Below, in pieces: positions 1 through 13,789 of a DNA stretch of 13,789 nucleotides. Both the position numbers and the translations under genes were made by a program. This DNA comes from a virus: positions 1-13,789 of IMG/VR virus record IMGVR_UViG_3300045988_121957. The stretch is one strand, 5' to 3'. Within the stretch, counting starts at the first letter, position 1. The number at the start of each line of letters is the position of its first letter. The notes beneath the pieces were generated by a model that did not search any database, was not told the origin of the DNA, and saw only the letters and a list, made by a program, of their open reading frames with translations.

Positions 1-89
1 TTATTCTGTTGACATATTAGTTCAAATGGACTATAATAAACTCAACAAATCAATACAGCACAGCCAACTAGGCAGGAGGGTGAATATGA
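1..89. repeat. Left inverted terminal repeat (ITR), 89 bp
   Basis: Positions 1-89 are the exact reverse complement of 13701-13789, compared base by base. Identity breaks at position 90 versus 13700. The repeat sits exactly at the window ends. Confidence 0.97.
9..37 (+). promoter_or_regulatory. Consensus sigma-A (sigma70-type) promoter inside the left ITR, reading inward
   Basis: TTGACA at 9-14, a 17-nt spacer, and TATAAT at 32-37. Both hexamers match consensus perfectly. Downstream lie AGGAGGG (74-80) and ATG (86). Confidence 0.8.
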
Positions 90-853
90 AAGAAAATACT
101 TTAGTTTTACGTCCATCTTACTGGGCTTCAGTTTCCGGAGGAAAAGATAGCTTATATATGTTAAAATACATATTGACTAACATAGATAAGTACCCATTAG
201 ATGGAGTGATTCATTTCGAACTTGAGATTGACTATCCATTCATTCATGAAGTAATTGACTATATGGAAGATGAATGCAAAAAATATGGCATTAAATTTGT
301 CAGAATCAAGCCTAGAAAAACATGGGATGAACTATATAAAAAATATGGATTTCCGACAAGAAAGGCACGCTGGTGTAATAGTCATTACAAATTGGATGCA
401 CTTAAACAACTTAATGAATATATGAATCAATTAGGTTATTTCGTTGTAAGCTATATCGGATATTGTGCTGATGAGGAAAAAAGGTTTAAAAATAAAAATA
501 AAAATAAAAACGAAATATACCCACTTGTTGATGCAGGCATTAAAGAAGGTGTAATATTAGAATGGGCGAAAAGACAGCCAATATTTAACCATTATTATGA
601 GTACAACACTAGATGTGGCTGTATGTATTGTCCAATGTCAAGGTACATTAATTATGCCTATTTGTATAAATTTTATCCAGATAAATTTCAGTTCATGATT
701 GAAAAAATGAGAGAGACTGAAAAAATGAGGGAGCATGAACTTGGGCATCCTTTTTCCGTGATATCCTCAAATCCAAAATATAATGCGGACTATTTAGAGG
801 AAATCATTAAAACAAAATGGTTAAAAAAACTTAAAGAACAGGAGGAACAGTAA
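86..853 (+). CDS. PP-loop ATP pyrophosphatase, PAPS-reductase/DndC-like family (255 aa)
   Basis: SGGKDS PP-loop motif in 'WASVSGGKDSLYML'. 'ARWCNSHYK' and a C-terminal 'RCGCMYCP' cysteine cluster are typical of phage PAPS-reductase-like proteins. I chose the ATG at 86 because it lies 5-6 nt after AGGAGGG. The track start at 26 falls inside the promoter spacer. Confidence 0.75.
   Translation: MKENTLVLRPSYWASVSGGKDSLYMLKYILTNIDKYPLDGVIHFELEIDYPFIHEVIDYMEDECKKYGIKFVRIKPRKTWDELYKKYGFPTRKARWCNSHYKLDALKQLNEYMNQLGYFVVSYIGYCADEEKRFKNKNKNKNEIYPLVDAGIKEGVILEWAKRQPIFNHYYEYNTRCGCMYCPMSRYINYAYLYKFYPDKFQFMIEKMRETEKMREHELGHPFSVISSNPKYNADYLEEIIKTKWLKKLKEQEEQ
488..511 (+). repeat. In-frame hexanucleotide microsatellite (AAAAAT)x3 + AAAAAC encoding KNKNKNKN
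   Basis: Direct reading gives aaaaat aaaaat aaaaat aaaaac. Position 488 is codon position 1 of the CDS starting at 86. Confidence 0.9.
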
Positions 854-1288
854 ATGAAATCAAAATACACAAAAATCAAATATACGAACACCGGAGTAAA
901 ATCCCCGGTAGTAACTCTTATGAAATCAAAATCAGATCTTGATAGAACAGACATGATAGAATTAAGATATTCAGACATAATCATAGTTATTTCAAGAATT
1001 TTACGAAAAACTATGTATAATAAAGCAGAATCAAGAATCGAAATACGAAGAAAAAATAACACTCTTTGTGCACTAGTTAGAGTAAAGGATACTATCAATG
1101 ATGCAAAAATAATGGTTGAAAACTATTACATTTTCGCAAAACTTTATATATATTTGAATGAACAAAAATATATTAGTGACAAAGAGTATAGATACTATGA
1201 AGAATGGGCTAAGATAGTGTATGATGGGTTTAATCATAAACTATATGATGAAATAATGGGGGTGCTCAAATATGCCAAAGAATCCTAG
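854..1288 (+). CDS. Hypothetical early protein (144 aa), Lys/Tyr-rich
   Basis: The ORF starts immediately after the upstream stop (TAAATG) and overlaps the next gene by 17 nt. I recognised no motif. The region is very AT-rich. Confidence 0.6.
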   Translation: MKSKYTKIKYTNTGVKSPVVTLMKSKSDLDRTDMIELRYSDIIIVISRILRKTMYNKAESRIEIRRKNNTLCALVRVKDTINDAKIMVENYYIFAKLYIYLNEQKYISDKEYRYYEEWAKIVYDGFNHKLYDEIMGVLKYAKES

Positions 1289-1892
1289 AATCCCGACCAC
1301 TTCAAAAGGGTTGAACGTCAACCCAAACATGCTTACTACTGCCGAAGCTTTACAGCTTCGCAGACAGCTTGCTAAACGTCTGAATCAGCGTATGCGTAGA
1401 TTAAAGGCAAAAGGATTTGATTCAGAATTTGGCGGGGCGTATGCCGACTATCAAGATTTACTTGTAAGATTTTTTCCAGGACGATCAACCATTCCGGAAA
1501 ACTTGGAAAATGAAAAGTATAAAGGCTTGCCTAGAACACAAGTCAAGGCAATACAAAAAGTGCTGAAAGAAAAGAGCAGCACTGTGCAAGGTTGGAGAGA
1601 AATTATTGATAAGCGTCAAAAAACGCTATCTGATGAATATGGAATTACTTTTAAGTCAAAATCAGAAATGAAACTTTTTTTCAAATCTGAGGTATGGAAG
1701 TGGATGCAAACCTTTTATGATAGCAAACAGACGTTGAGAATCATCAGTCACAAACTTGATAAGTCTACAGTCAAAAAAATAATAGAGGACCTGGAACAAT
1801 TTAGGGAGCGTACAGACAATGAGATGGCTGATGTGATAGCTAAACAGCTAGGGTTCTCTGGTGAGGCTGAGGCATTGAAGTACAGACCATAG
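1272..1892 (+). CDS. Candidate terminal protein (206 aa)
   Basis: It lies immediately upstream of the protein-primed DNA polymerase, the same order as phi29 gene 3 then gene 2. The N-terminus is strongly basic ('LQLRRQLAKRLNQRMRRLKAKG'). A GGGGGTG SD sits 8 nt upstream. I recognised no direct sequence similarity. Confidence 0.45.
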   Translation: MPKNPRIPTTSKGLNVNPNMLTTAEALQLRRQLAKRLNQRMRRLKAKGFDSEFGGAYADYQDLLVRFFPGRSTIPENLENEKYKGLPRTQVKAIQKVLKEKSSTVQGWREIIDKRQKTLSDEYGITFKSKSEMKLFFKSEVWKWMQTFYDSKQTLRIISHKLDKSTVKKIIEDLEQFRERTDNEMADVIAKQLGFSGEAEALKYRP

Positions 1893-1908
1893 CAGGGGGG
1901 GTAAAATA

Positions 1909-4032
1909 ATGGTAGTCGCAGGTTATCCGGTTATTTATTTTAAAAACTATGATTATATGCGACTGTTCAATGGTGATTTCATCCGACGATCCAACGCTGG
2001 TCATTATCTAGGAGTTTACGAAAAAATCATAACGGTAGACACGGAAACTTTTGTCTATCTCAATAAAGATATTGGGTTTGTGACAGATTGGACAATCACG
2101 ATAGAGAATGACTGCTGTATTTATGGCAACCATGTTTCTGATCTGATTGATACGATAGACAGGATCTGCACAACTTTACATACTGACGACAGCCACCTTG
2201 TAAGATTTTATGTGCATAATTTTCCTTATGATTATGTATTTTTAAGAAATCATTTTTTCCAAAAATGGGGGAATCCGGACAAATCATTAGCTGCTAAAAC
2301 ACATAAGTACATCTTTATGAAATGGACGGGACAGGGCATTGAGTTCCGGGACAGTCTTATCTTGACACAGAGATCATTAGAAAAGCTTTGTAAAGACATG
2401 GGAACCACTGAGAAAGCTGTCGGAACATGGGACTATAAGAAATTTCGAACACCAGCAAGCCCACGTACGGCAAAAGAAATAGCATATGTCTGTACGGATA
2501 CGATAAGTTTATGCAAGGCACTACGCAAATACATAAATCAGAGAGGCTTTAACGTGGCGAACTGTCCACTGACAAACACAGGCTTTATCCGGACTAATGC
2601 CCGCAGGAGATCAAGAAAAGATAAGAAATGGCGTAAGCAATTTGAGCAAATGGCATTAACACTTGAACAGTATGACCAGATGCTTGACTGCTATCATGGG
2701 GGGTATACTCATGCCAACAGATACTATGTTAATCAGCTGATAAAAGAACCTGTCGAATGCTATGATTTTGCAAGTTCATACATTGCCTGGATGTGCTATT
2801 GCAAGTTTCCAATGACGAACTTTTGTTATACAAATAGTATAACATTAAAAGACATTATGGAACTGAAAGAAGATTATGCGTTTTCCGGCTATATAAGATT
2901 AAAGAATCTGAGGTTGAAAAAAGACTGCCCTATGCCACCTCTTGCTTTTTCAAAAGCAAAAGTTTGTCTGTTTCCGGAAGCAAAAAGCAAAAAGGAGCAA
3001 TTTCATGATAACCTAGACAATGGAAAGATTGTAAATGCAGATCTTGTCATATATCCATTTACTGATCCGGATTTAGAAGTCATCCTGTCAAGTTATGAGT
3101 ATGAATGGGCTGACGTGTCAAAAGTCATGAGAGCTACAAAGGACTACTTGCCGGAGTGGTTCACGGACTACTTGATGGAATTGTTTTTTAAAAAATGCAC
3201 CCTTAAAGGTTTGGATGAAGCAAACTACATGATCTCAAAAGGTGAGTTAAATGGAATGTATGGTATGACAGTACAAAGAATCATACAGATCTTATGTACT
3301 GAGTTGATGGAATCCGGAGATTGGGAGGCAAAAGAACCAGAGGACAGGGAGAAAGAACTTGAAAAATTTTACCGGAATAAAAACAGTTTCATGCCCTACC
3401 AGTGGGGAGTTTTTATCACAGCTTATGCACAGGCTTATCTTTTCCGGCTAGGCTCCTGCTGCCGGAGATGGTTTTATTCAGACACAGATTCAGTAAAAGG
3501 CACAGACTGGGATCATGATAAACTGAATGCATTTAATCAGTCCATCATTGAATTGTCACAAAAAAGAAACATTGGAGTAGTTGAGTATAATGGAAAAATT
3601 TTCCGGTTGGGAATTGCTGAGTTTGACGGAATCTACAGTGAGTTTATAACGATGGGTAGTAAGCGGTATTGCTACCGGTTGAAAAAAGATGCATCTTTGC
3701 ATCTGACGGTTGCAGGAGTGCCAAAAGAGGGAATCTATTGCCTGGATGATGATATTACCAACTTTCGAAAAGGATTTATTTTCAAAAATGATCTTACATT
3801 CCGCAGGAACTACCGCAGGTCAAATGATTGGTGTGATCCCAAATGGAAAATGAAAACGGAGTATCTTTTTCATGATGGAATCAATGAACTGACCATTGAC
3901 GGATGCAGGATTGAGTATGGCTGTGCTATCCGCTTAACGGATACAGAGTATGAATTGGATCATACGATTCCGTATGATAAAGAAACAGGATTACCGTTGC
4001 CATTTGAAATGGAAGATACGGTATATGAATAG
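1909..4032 (+). CDS. Protein-primed family-B DNA polymerase (707 aa)
   Basis: ExoI 'VDTETF', ExoII 'HNFPYDYVF', ExoIII 'YVCTDTISL', 'YHGGY', motif A 'YDFASSY', motif B 'KGELNGMYG'. 'WGVFITAYAQ' parallels phi29 'MGVFITAWAR'. Also motif C 'YSDTDS' and a KxY motif 'SKRYCY'. A GGGGGG SD precedes the ATG. Confidence 0.95.
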   Translation: MVVAGYPVIYFKNYDYMRLFNGDFIRRSNAGHYLGVYEKIITVDTETFVYLNKDIGFVTDWTITIENDCCIYGNHVSDLIDTIDRICTTLHTDDSHLVRFYVHNFPYDYVFLRNHFFQKWGNPDKSLAAKTHKYIFMKWTGQGIEFRDSLILTQRSLEKLCKDMGTTEKAVGTWDYKKFRTPASPRTAKEIAYVCTDTISLCKALRKYINQRGFNVANCPLTNTGFIRTNARRRSRKDKKWRKQFEQMALTLEQYDQMLDCYHGGYTHANRYYVNQLIKEPVECYDFASSYIAWMCYCKFPMTNFCYTNSITLKDIMELKEDYAFSGYIRLKNLRLKKDCPMPPLAFSKAKVCLFPEAKSKKEQFHDNLDNGKIVNADLVIYPFTDPDLEVILSSYEYEWADVSKVMRATKDYLPEWFTDYLMELFFKKCTLKGLDEANYMISKGELNGMYGMTVQRIIQILCTELMESGDWEAKEPEDREKELEKFYRNKNSFMPYQWGVFITAYAQAYLFRLGSCCRRWFYSDTDSVKGTDWDHDKLNAFNQSIIELSQKRNIGVVEYNGKIFRLGIAEFDGIYSEFITMGSKRYCYRLKKDASLHLTVAGVPKEGIYCLDDDITNFRKGFIFKNDLTFRRNYRRSNDWCDPKWKMKTEYLFHDGINELTIDGCRIEYGCAIRLTDTEYELDHTIPYDKETGLPLPFEMEDTVYE

Positions 4033-5094: not shown

Positions 5095-6143
5095 TGAATA
5101 TCTATGATAAAAATGGTTGGCTGGACGTTCCAAGGATTGTCCAGCTTGCCGATAAAAATAAAATTAACTTTATCTTTATCATTGGAGCAAGACGAACCGG
5201 AAAAACGTATGGAATCTTCCAGCACTTTATCAATGATGTCTTTTCAAAAAATGAAAAGATCATTTACATGCGCCGCACAAAAGAGCAGCTGACAAAAGTG
5301 TTTCTTCCGGAGTTTGATCCGTGGCTGGACATAAACAAAGATATGAATAGGTTTTTTCATTTTGAAAAACCCAGAGGTGAATACGGTCGAATTAAGATTA
5401 TGGAGCAGACAGAGGAAGAGGAAGTATATAGAGGTGAGGCTTTTTGTCTTACCTCTATGCACAACAACCGTGGTTTCTCTGGATCCGATTTTTCTGAGGG
5501 TATCTATGATGAATTTATCCCGGAGAAGATTGCTAAGTCAATCAGTGGGGAAGATGATGCCTTTTTGAATGCTGTTGAAACAATCTCAGCAAATAGGGAG
5601 TTGCAAGGAAAGAAACCATTCCGCTGGTGGCTTGCTTCCAATTCTAACACCTTGGATAATGCAATAGTGCAAGCTTTTGGTTTGCTTCCAATATTGGAGC
5701 GGATGAAAAAGAATGAGAAGGAGTTTTCCATGCTCAAAGAGAGAGGAATCATCTTGGTTCTGATAAATGATTCCCCAATTTCAGAAAAGAAAAAAGATAC
5801 TGCTTTGTATCGGGCTTTATCGGGTGATACAGACTTTGCAAAGATGGCTTTATCTAATGAGTTTGCATATGATGATGTATCAGCAATAAAATCAGAGGAT
5901 ATAAGGCAGTACAAGCTTATTTGTGTCATTGGAAAAATAGCAATTTATGAGCATAAATCAAAAGCACACTTGTATGTGTCGGATCATATCTCTGGATCTT
6001 GCAAAGATGTATTTGAAGATAGTCAGCATGGAAAAGACCAATTTAGATGCTTTTATAGTTGGATTGATAGCTATCGTCTGACAAATAGGATAAGTTATCA
6101 GAATATTTCAGTAAAATTTTATATTGACAAATTATTCAAATAG
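5094..6143 (+). CDS. DNA encapsidation (packaging) ATPase, phi29 gp16 type (349 aa)
   Basis: 'FIIGARRTGKTY' parallels phi29 gp16 'FVIGARGIGKSY' (Walker A). 'IIYMRRTKEQL' parallels 'FIYVRRYKPEL'. 'YDEFIPEK' parallels 'FDEFIREK' (Walker B). I placed the start at ATG 5094, which overlaps the SpoVG-like stop (TAATG) and has GGAGG upstream. The track start at 5046 would overlap that gene by 49 nt. Confidence 0.9.
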   Translation: MNIYDKNGWLDVPRIVQLADKNKINFIFIIGARRTGKTYGIFQHFINDVFSKNEKIIYMRRTKEQLTKVFLPEFDPWLDINKDMNRFFHFEKPRGEYGRIKIMEQTEEEEVYRGEAFCLTSMHNNRGFSGSDFSEGIYDEFIPEKIAKSISGEDDAFLNAVETISANRELQGKKPFRWWLASNSNTLDNAIVQAFGLLPILERMKKNEKEFSMLKERGIILVLINDSPISEKKKDTALYRALSGDTDFAKMALSNEFAYDDVSAIKSEDIRQYKLICVIGKIAIYEHKSKAHLYVSDHISGSCKDVFEDSQHGKDQFRCFYSWIDSYRLTNRISYQNISVKFYIDKLFK

Positions 6144-6152
6144 AATTATATT
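6124..6152 (+). promoter_or_regulatory. Near-consensus sigma-A promoter (candidate late promoter) in the 3' end of the ATPase gene
   Basis: TTGACA at 6124-6129, an exact 17-nt spacer, and TATATT at 6147-6152. The predicted TSS near 6159-6160 coincides with the 5' end of the structured element. In my scan of TTGACA sites on both strands, this is the only other one with a good -10 at 17 nt. Confidence 0.6.
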
Positions 6153-6157
6153 TTACT

Positions 6158-6244
6158 TAGGTCAACGTGGCTACATCGACCGCCGGAAGCGGATGCCGTG
6201 GGATGATTACCCGGAAGCGTTGACCTATTTAATTAACTTCCGGC
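6158..6244 (+). ncRNA. GC-rich structured RNA element: three-way-junction-like fold plus an alternative pairing segment. It could be a late-operon leader or a stand-alone RNA.
   Basis: A 10-bp outer stem pairs TAGGTCAACG (6158-6167) with CGTTGACCTA (6218-6227). It encloses hairpin CCGC-cggaa-GCGG (6180-6192) and hairpin CCG(t)GG-gatgatta-CCCGG (6196-6214). CCGGAAGCG occurs twice (6183-6191, 6211-6219), and CTTCCGGC (6237-6244) can pair with either copy. G+C is 59% over 6158-6227 by direct count, in an AT-rich context. Confidence 0.5.
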
Positions 6245-6262
6245 AGAAAAGGAGAAAAGAAA

Positions 6263-6574
6263 ATGAATGTAAATGAAATTTTAGAACTTGGAAAACTTGG
6301 ATTTTCAAAAAATGAGATCATGGGGATTCTGAACGCTCAGAGTATGTCTGGACTTGGACAGATTACAACTCCGGAACAGGGTACTCCGCAGCAGACTACT
6401 CCGGTACAGATTCCAACTCCGGGACAGGATGCAACAAATACAGCATTGCTGACAGCAATCAACACTTTGACTGCTACCTTGCAGGCTGGGAACCTGTCAG
6501 CATCCGGGAAAACCGGAACAACACAGCGTACCTCTGACAACGTAGCGGAAGATCTGATGAAACTCATGAATTAA
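6263..6574 (+). CDS. Candidate scaffolding protein (103 aa)
   Basis: It lies immediately upstream of the major capsid gene and is about the size of phi29 gp7 (~98 aa). The ends look helical and are joined by a T/P/Q-rich linker. The call rests on position and composition only. Confidence 0.5.
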   Translation: MNVNEILELGKLGFSKNEIMGILNAQSMSGLGQITTPEQGTPQQTTPVQIPTPGQDATNTALLTAINTLTATLQAGNLSASGKTGTTQRTSDNVAEDLMKLMN

Positions 6575-13210: not shown

Positions 13211-13239
13211 ATAGCCCAGCAGCCACTGGGCTATTTTTA
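13211..13239. terminator. Bidirectional intrinsic terminator between the convergent late (+) and right-early (-) units
   Basis: A perfect 9-bp stem pairs ATAGCCCAG with CTGGGCTAT around a 6-nt loop (CAGCCA). A T-run follows on the + strand and a U-rich tract follows on the minus strand. It sits 12 nt after the + strand stop and abuts the minus-strand stop at 13237-13239. Confidence 0.8.
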
Positions 13240-13512
13240 TGCATCTATCAAAAGGTTTCTGAGCAACTTTATTACTCCCCAGTTTGTTGAAGCATGATAA
13301 AATTTAGACTCTTTAAATGGCTGATAGTAAGTTACAGCCCAATCTTTATATCCAGTTAAGGATATTTCAATGTAATCTATATAGCAAAGATAGTATACAC
13401 ATAAATAATCGCCATTTTCGGATAATCCGCAAGTATAGCCTTGCTTCTCAAGATCACAAGTGAGTTGTTTAAGGTTCATTGTGTCTTTGTTGTAGTATGG
13501 ATTCACTTTCAT
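13237..13512 (-). CDS. Hypothetical right-end early protein (91 aa), Tyr/Cys-rich
   Basis: ORF track entry. An AGGAGG SD precedes the ATG (minus strand 'aaataggaggtatataacATG'). I recognised no motif. Confidence 0.65.
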   Translation of the reverse strand: MKVNPYYNKDTMNLKQLTCDLEKQGYTCGLSENGDYLCVYYLCYIDYIEISLTGYKDWAVTYYQPFKESKFYHASTNWGVIKLLRNLLIDA

Positions 13513-13524
13513 GTTATATACCTC

Positions 13525-13704
13525 CTATTTAAATCCTTTTTCTTTCATTTCGTCTTCAAGATTTTTTAATTCTTTCCAAATTTTTTTTTCATGTGCTACA
13601 AATACTTCAATATCAGGATATTTCATAGTATAATCATACTCTCTACCCCATCTTTCTAATAATGCTTCATGTGCTAATTCATATAATCTTGCTTCTTTCA
13701 TCAT
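13525..13704 (-). CDS. Hypothetical right-end early protein (59 aa), helical, Glu/Lys-rich
   Basis: It is the first gene downstream of the right ITR promoter and SD. It starts at the ITR-encoded ATG (13704). The 20-aa N-terminal extension in the track is an ITR artefact. Confidence 0.65.
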   Translation of the reverse strand: MMKEARLYELAHEALLERWGREYDYTMKYPDIEVFVAHEKKIWKELKNLEDEMKEKGFK

Positions 13705-13789
13705 ATTCACCCTCCTGCCTAGTTGGCTGTGCTGTATTGATTTGTTGAGTTTATTATAGTCCATTTGAACTAATATGTCAACAGAATAA
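13701..13789. repeat. Right inverted terminal repeat (ITR), 89 bp
   Basis: Exact reverse complement of 1-89. Confidence 0.97.
13753..13781 (-). promoter_or_regulatory. Consensus sigma-A promoter inside the right ITR, reading inward
   Basis: Mirror copy of the left ITR promoter. On the minus strand, -35 is at 13776-13781 and -10 at 13753-13758. The same SD and an ATG at 13704 follow. Confidence 0.8.

Follow-up and report, generated by a model that had tools for sequence, protein, structure and literature searches.

The analysed stretch of 13,789 nt (IMG/VR record IMGVR_UViG_3300045988_121957; hereafter called the window) encodes, according to Pfam, a protein-primed family-B polymerase at 1909–4032 (PF03175, DNA_pol_B_2, E = 9e-14), a gp16-type packaging ATPase (PF05894, Podovirus_Gp16, E = 4.7e-16), a phi29-type major capsid protein (PF25622, Phi29_MCP, E = 7.9e-15) and an NlpC/P60 lysin. 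The large genes all lie on the + strand between 86 and 13198, and two small genes read inward from the right end. A repeat finder revealed a perfect inverted repeat of 89 nt at the two window ends, with positions 1–89 being 100% reverse-complementary to positions 13701–13789. The features with which the following paragraphs are concerned are:

1–89, + strand: inner 89 nt of the left ITR, perfect inverted repeat, extending further out in relatives
9–37, + strand: inward sigma-A/sigma-70-type promoter matching the consensus at 12/12 positions, consisting of -35 TTGACA at 9–14, a 17-nt spacer and -10 TATAAT at 32–37
44–85, + strand: predicted 5'UTR, A/C-rich, with its start put at about 44 from the position of the -10 hexamer
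74–79, + strand: Shine-Dalgarno (SD) sequence AGGAGG, 6 nt before the ATG at 86–88; GGAGG is invariant in the ITR alignment A1
86–853, + strand: PAPS-reductase/PP-loop protein, first gene of the left operon (PF01507; phrog_424, category moron/AMG)
854–4032, + strand: rest of the predicted early left operon behind the ITR promoter, from gene order and a promoter/terminator scan
854–1288, + strand: 144-aa ORF of the left operon
1272–1892, + strand: putative terminal protein, from gene position only (just upstream of the polymerase gene); no family matched
13211–13234, − strand: terminator-like hairpin closing the right operon, 10-pair stem with 5 GC pairs
13237–13704, − strand: right inward operon with a 59-aa gene (13525–13704) and a 91-aa gene (13237–13512)
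13701–13789, − strand: inner 89 nt of the right ITR, perfect inverted repeat
13781–13776, 13758–13753 and 13716–13711, − strand: right-end -35, -10 and SD, respectively
13704–13702 and 13701–13699, − strand: right-end ATG and a second ATG

Identical copies of promoter, leader, SD and ATG at both termini, within a repeat of 100% identity, had already been reported in a preliminary description of this DNA and are found as described. Read from the start codon, the left end continues as ATGAAAGAA and the right end as ATGATGAAAGAA; after the first ATG, AAAGAA on the left is opposed to ATGAAAGAA on the right, and allowing for a 3-nt indel six more bases are shared, so that the continuation of identity through AAAGAA claimed in that description can be read directly from both ends. 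For the left gene ATG 86 is the sensible start, since an extension of the ORF to ATG 26 would fall in the promoter spacer and lack an SD. Of 54 promoter-like matches in the window, only the two ITR copies (9–37 and 13753–13781) reach 12/12, and against these two sites for the 12/12 pattern 0.01 are expected from 200 dinucleotide-preserving shuffles. The identity of the two repeat copies may be partly assembler-made, as inverted repeats collapse in a de Bruijn graph. Folding of the leader (MFE -6.6 kcal/mol, z-score -0.27) revealed no structure beyond that of shuffled sequence, and a riboswitch or attenuator in the leader was therefore dropped as a candidate.

With respect to the genes behind the two cassettes, a strong + strand terminator was not found between 89 and 1909, and two weak terminator-like sites of the + strand lie at 111 and 3394 within 86–4032. 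Homologues of the 59-aa and 91-aa genes are located directly behind the ITR cassette in relatives as well. No PHROGs or Pfam family matched the 59-aa, 91-aa, 144-aa and 206-aa proteins, nor was a p6 homologue identified among the window proteins. The PP-loop gene is present in three of about 56 genomes of the clade, namely the window, L006 and L009, and searching IMG/VR with it returned within the clade only the latter two, both of which are shortened more than the window; a search of metagenome contigs for the PP-loop protein gave no match. As a homologue of 67% identity resides in an unrelated viral contig of 38.5 kb (L061) and the gene is rare in the clade, it is a horizontally acquired, promoter-proximal cargo gene.

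The nearest GenBank record (MT836115) is an unannotated human-faecal contig with 84% nucleotide identity, and the closest polymerases from cultured phages, those of the Amedibacillus phages AD70P2 and AD70P3 and of Clostridium phage HM2, are about 31% identical. In IMG/VR, 54 relatives were found, most of them with 93–97% polymerase identity, and three (L053–L055) with 68–77% over the matched segment. The record of phage AD70P3 has no ITR, and its coding sequences reach both record ends, which makes it uninformative with regard to the termini.

By comparing the ends of these relatives it is evident that the clade has a common terminus, and that this terminus is not reached by the window. The sequence AAACT(T/A)GGCAAG (AAACTTGGCAAG) is the exact beginning of 27 contig ends from 18 loci, and it is kept even in relatives with 68% DNAP identity. 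In a 28th contig end, the right end of L032, an Illumina adaptor tail (CTTCCGATCT, positions 1–10, reverse strand) is fused directly to the shared terminus; this tail is technical sequence and at the same time a useful proof of a physical end, since independent assemblies stopping at one base together with an adaptor ligated there indicate a physical DNA end. (A 33-nt poly-A run at positions 1–33 of the left end of L031 is likewise technical.) The independent ENA contig L066 starts at AAACTTGGCAAG and matches window 1–84 from its nucleotide 145 onward; both L066 and L008 are identical to window 1–84 and then carry 144 nt more on the outer side, and the relatives overall continue for 144–155 nt beyond window position 1 before the common terminus. 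The distance from the -35 hexamer to the end hence amounts to 132–175 nt in full-length contigs as compared to 9 nt in the window, whose position 1 corresponds to column 182 of alignment A1 and to about nucleotides 145–156 of the full-length ITRs. The window start (TTATTCTG) shows no terminal base reiteration, and the 28 contig ends of the relatives start with AAA. Terminal reiteration is required for the sliding-back of phi29-like phages (PMC6266182; PMC4974454), and the AAA terminus of the relatives fits this requirement.

In shortened relatives the apparent 'ITRs' measure 55, 99, 99, 99 and 119 nt, numbers resembling the k-mer settings of assemblers. When a de Bruijn assembler meets an inverted terminal repeat, it yields a central contig with one k-mer of the repeat at each end. 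A full-length ITR is absent from all three genomes of the window genotype, in which the PP-loop gene comes first (window, L006, L009), and the exact junction pattern of this genotype with a full ITR had no match in IMG/VR; the roughly 145 nt missing per end of the window are those that we infer from the relatives. From the ITR of L008 and L066 the expected outer continuation would run from the window ends through ...GTCTGTCACTTATTCTG to AAACTTGGCAAG. From these alignments we conclude that the window lacks about 144–155 nt per end, and that the real genome would have a size of about 14.08 kb with ITRs of about 225–250 bp; some 290 bp of the genome, both presumed origins included, would thus be absent from the window.

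The opposite reading, according to which the contig ends are the true ends, the ITR measures 89 bp and the promoter lies 9–37 nt from the terminus, would imply that RNA polymerase and the TP/DNAP complex compete for the same 40 bp or so. Although both contig ends do stop at the same repeat position and leave a clean 89-nt ITR, and although a longer contig of the same genotype was not found, we regard this as very improbable, as a symmetric cut inside an inverted repeat is just the expected product of a de Bruijn assembler, the window start has no terminal reiteration such as sliding-back requires, contigs identical to it over 1–84 run on outward, and the ends that reach the shared AAA terminus, one of them adaptor-tagged, come from relatives with 93–97% identical polymerases. 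The preliminary description had put the promoter within about 40 bp of the DNA end, overlapping the origin; since the contig stops inside both ITRs, the overlap is unsupported, and positions 1–89 do not lie at a physical DNA end as had been claimed. At the other extreme, the terminal repeat could be purely an artefact of assembly, i.e., a chimeric or fold-back contig of a phage without any repeat. Implausible repeats do occur in some relatives; that of L024 (557 nt) starts within a gene and that of L046 is as long as 1430 nt, and these two might stem from fold-back during assembly or from defective genomes. However, dozens of independent assemblies from several studies share this repeat, flanked by unique sequence that differs between the two sides, and the protein-primed polymerase class belongs to a type of phage that requires ITRs, which makes an artefact hardly credible. 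For protein-primed phages in general, a metagenomic contig that passes for a 'complete genome with ITR' can be a symmetric truncation, and therefore its apparent ends should not be read as origins.

Whether the hexamers are a promoter at all is a separate question. The pattern is kept in all 65 related contig ends that hold the region, 51 of them matching at 12/12 and 14 at 11/12 positions, with a spacing of 17 nt in 62 of the 65, although these counts are not fully independent, as many of the relatives are close to one another and were drawn from a single pooled IMG/VR dataset. Alignment A1 shows both hexamers and GGAGG as invariant, in contrast to the leader, which diverges in L017, L035, L040 and L053, and even L053 and L054 from the distant clade (68% DNAP identity) have TTGACA-17-TAAAAT. 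It might be argued that the hexamers are sites for a replication or packaging protein that merely resemble a promoter, with early transcription starting elsewhere, and in fact conservation extends over the entire ITR, other motifs of unassigned role included. We consider this unlikely, given that 11 or 12 of the 12 hexamer positions and the spacing are preserved, that the site always lies about 35–40 nt upstream of a strong SD and start codon in the relatives, that upstream of the terminal protein and DNA polymerase genes a promoter of comparable strength was not found but only weaker promoter-like matches of at most 10/12, and that the same layout is annotated as promoters in the phages Cp-1 and asccphi28. 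A search of metagenomes with the leader pattern returned six contigs, all of them DNA-like and none starting at the predicted transcription start. The comparison with the relatives thus backs the description of the two ends as twin inward expression cassettes preceding unrelated first genes, and supports their interpretation as twin inward early promoters. Each cassette is predicted to be a compact, strong and conserved expression element for Firmicute hosts. This abundant gut clade keeps identical copies of early promoter, leader and SD at its two ends and has variable cargo genes directly behind them, which leads to the hypothesis of an orientation-independent immediate-early expression.

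The full-length ITR consists of two parts, and the 89 nt present in the window make up only its inner third. According to alignment A1 the outer part contains the conserved terminus, TGTGAACAAATTGTKAACA, a TGTTCATATTT unit repeated in tandem two or three times, a block of almost invariant sequence (CTGGCATGNNTCTTGCTAG) and the palindrome ATTGTCTGACAAT. The inner part corresponds to the window cassette of promoter, A/C-rich leader and GGAGG. By analogy, the outer 145–155 nt or so are presumed to be the origin. The block CTGGCATGNNTCTTGCTAG is found, e.g., at 79–94 of L010 and also in L007, L016, L053 and others, and has been preserved in the clade whose DNAP is 68% identical. It is similar to the -24/-12 consensus of sigma-54 (TGGCAC-N5-TTGCW), points inward and lies about 60 nt upstream of the sigma-A -35, and could be a second promoter or a protein-binding site. 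The palindrome ATTGTCTGACAAT is perfect, lies about 30 nt upstream of the -35 (113–125 in L010), is conserved in both clades and is duplicated in L017 (about 106–136); from its sequence and position it is likely to be an operator for a regulator of the ITR promoter. Close to the palindrome, the number of tandem TGTTCATATTT units varies between two and three among the genomes.

The arrangement has precedents, which were examined directly on the GenBank records of the reference phages. Streptococcus phage Cp-1 (Z47794), a protein-primed phi29-like podophage with a long ITR and inward mirrored promoters, carries TTGACA-17-TATAAT twice per end, 222 and 316 nt from the terminus on either side, with TACAAT in the first copy on the right, and the record annotates all of them as -35/-10; the promoters precede two different first genes, orf1 (ATG 376) and orfa (ATG 375 from the right end), and the left operon, like that predicted for the window, continues into the genes for terminal protein and DNA polymerase. 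The perfect ITR of Cp-1 measures 236 nt and ends inside the first promoter, and near-identity extends to about 353 nt, to a point about 9 nt past the second -10 and about 7 nt short of the orf1 and orfa RBS. Cp-1 thus differs in having two tandem promoters per end and an unshared leader and RBS, whereas the repeat of the present clade also covers 5'UTR and SD and reaches the ATG. A DNAP match to Cp-1 was not among the tblastn matches listed, where those of about 31% identity are to other phages. In Lactococcus phage asccphi28 (EU438902) the putative promoters P2 and P7 are mirrored inside ITRs of 577 nt, pointing inward about 50–75 nt from the inner repeat edge, with the first CDSs 614 and 595 nt from the ends and near-identity to about 610. 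The ITR of Clostridium phage HM2 (LT600745), about 170 nt long, has TTGACA-17-GATAAT at its inner edge at both ends but stops at the -10 and not at the SD. The promoters of asccphi28 and HM2 are weaker matches or predicted only, and the lengths and sequences of these ITRs are unrelated to those of the window. In the tectivirus PRD1 (AY848689), which is not a tailed phage, terminal protein and DNA polymerase genes on the left and small early genes on the right are both directed inward. Hexamers resembling promoters are found on both sides at a distance of 144 nt from the end and outside the 110-bp ITR, the two copies having diverged. Beyond phages, the ITRs of adenovirus and the terminal repeats of fungal linear plasmids (kalilo, pGKL) contain transcription elements or inward gene starts, but these are eukaryotic systems with other polymerases and promoters.

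The principle of twin promoters is therefore not new, as Cp-1, asccphi28 and HM2 already have mirrored promoters in or at their ITRs, and from these sequences it would seem to be an existing but little-discussed feature of long-ITR phi29-like phages; among the open full-text papers that were searched, none was found to state that phage ITRs contain promoters. What the present clade adds is a shared repeat that continues through leader and SD up to the ATG. The contrast that had initially been drawn with phi29, whose ITR of only 6 bp does not include the promoter and which has an inward early promoter at one end only, is true, but the relevant comparison is with the long-ITR phages with mirrored promoters, and by its 6-bp ITR phi29 is the exception rather than the rule among the phages compared. 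Nevertheless, phi29 has in C2 an early promoter near a genome end that fires inward, and its origin-proximal p6 complex both stimulates replication initiation and shuts off C2 (PMC4974454), which is the kind of coupling between origin and promoter that the preliminary description had in mind. In the present clade direct competition between RNA polymerase and the priming complex is unlikely, as the polymerase footprint would lie about 100–215 nt from the end; by analogy, an indirect coupling via an origin-bound nucleoprotein complex is possible.

Taken together, we consider it probable that the window represents a near-complete, uncultured phi29-like podophage of the human gut, that the contig stops inside two-part ITRs and that their inner 90 nt or so are expression cassettes. 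Promoter activity, early timing, homogenisation and the mechanism of exchange are steps that we infer, and they might be connected as follows. Upon DNA entry, the sigma-A RNA polymerase of the host would fire inward from both ends, the left cassette driving the early operon with a variable accessory gene, the putative terminal protein and the DNA polymerase, and the right cassette a short operon of one to three small genes closed by the hairpin. Replication forks starting from each end would be co-directional with transcription from the cassettes. Homogenisation of the ITRs during protein-primed replication would keep both cassettes identical, while the downstream genes would be swappable cargo that is exchanged at the SD boundary and sometimes moved between the ends. 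ITR homogenisation is established for adenovirus and phi29-type replicons.

The position of the repeat boundary was determined as the point of divergence between left and right end in the 18 genomes with the promoter at both ends. It lies 0–18 nt after GGAGG in 15 of the 18, which relative to the start codon means between 10 nt upstream and 11 nt downstream; an inspection of related contigs for a coincidence of ITR boundary and start codon, as had been proposed, hence gave a positive result. These 15 genomes have at least 10 different pairs of first genes, with the first genes including the PP-loop gene, the 144-aa core ORF, a 77–81-aa family, genes for 148-aa, 70-aa and 74-aa proteins, the 62-aa MRTLKEVTN family, a 59–64-aa family and a 91-aa family. 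L017 and L028 carry a member of the family of the 59-aa gene from the right end of the window at their left end, and L010 carries such members on both sides. Of the three exceptions, L034 (119 nt) looks like a k-mer artefact, while in L010 (334 nt) and L041 (442 nt) the repeats take in the whole first gene, so that whole genes are duplicated at both ends; these two expansions look genuine as they start at the true terminus, and the repeat of L010 ends directly after the next SD, AATAGGAGGA.

A tentative hypothesis, to which we would give less than even credence, assumes that the inner ITR serves as a fixed docking site of promoter, leader and SD, behind which accessory early genes are captured, swapped and copied between the ends. 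Such exchanges might be driven by ITR homogenisation in protein-primed replication, through panhandle repair or template switching, and by microhomology at GGAGG. The hypothesis would explain why the boundary is pinned to the SD despite at least 10 gene pairs, why a gene family can be found at either end or at both, and why the ITR expansion of L010 stops at the next SD. If true, each telomere would carry an integron-like cargo slot.

In three metagenome contigs, L062, L063 and L064 (3925 nt), unrelated sequence of higher GC content is fused to the inner ITR cassette with its right-end genes. L064 adds a helicase-like ORF of 780 aa, and the fused sequence of L062 looks bacterial; these contigs are chimeric assemblies, or possibly products of recombination or integration.

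Further inside the genome, the packaging ATPase gene is directly followed by a conserved promoter, TTGACA-17-TATATT (11/12), at 6124–6152, and this in turn by a conserved structured RNA of some 75 nt (about 6158–6232). The RNA consists of a long closing helix and two hairpins, with 7 of 24 pairs covarying across the relatives, and it is overlapped by a 50-aa ORF at 6124–6276 that was called spurious. An Rfam scan of the window gave no credible match, including the pRNA family; the RNA is a candidate for a small pRNA missed by the Rfam pRNA model. By eye, the 5' bulge CAUC is complementary to the loop GAUG of the second hairpin, and in L053 and L054 bulge and loop have changed together to ACCA and UGGU, respectively.
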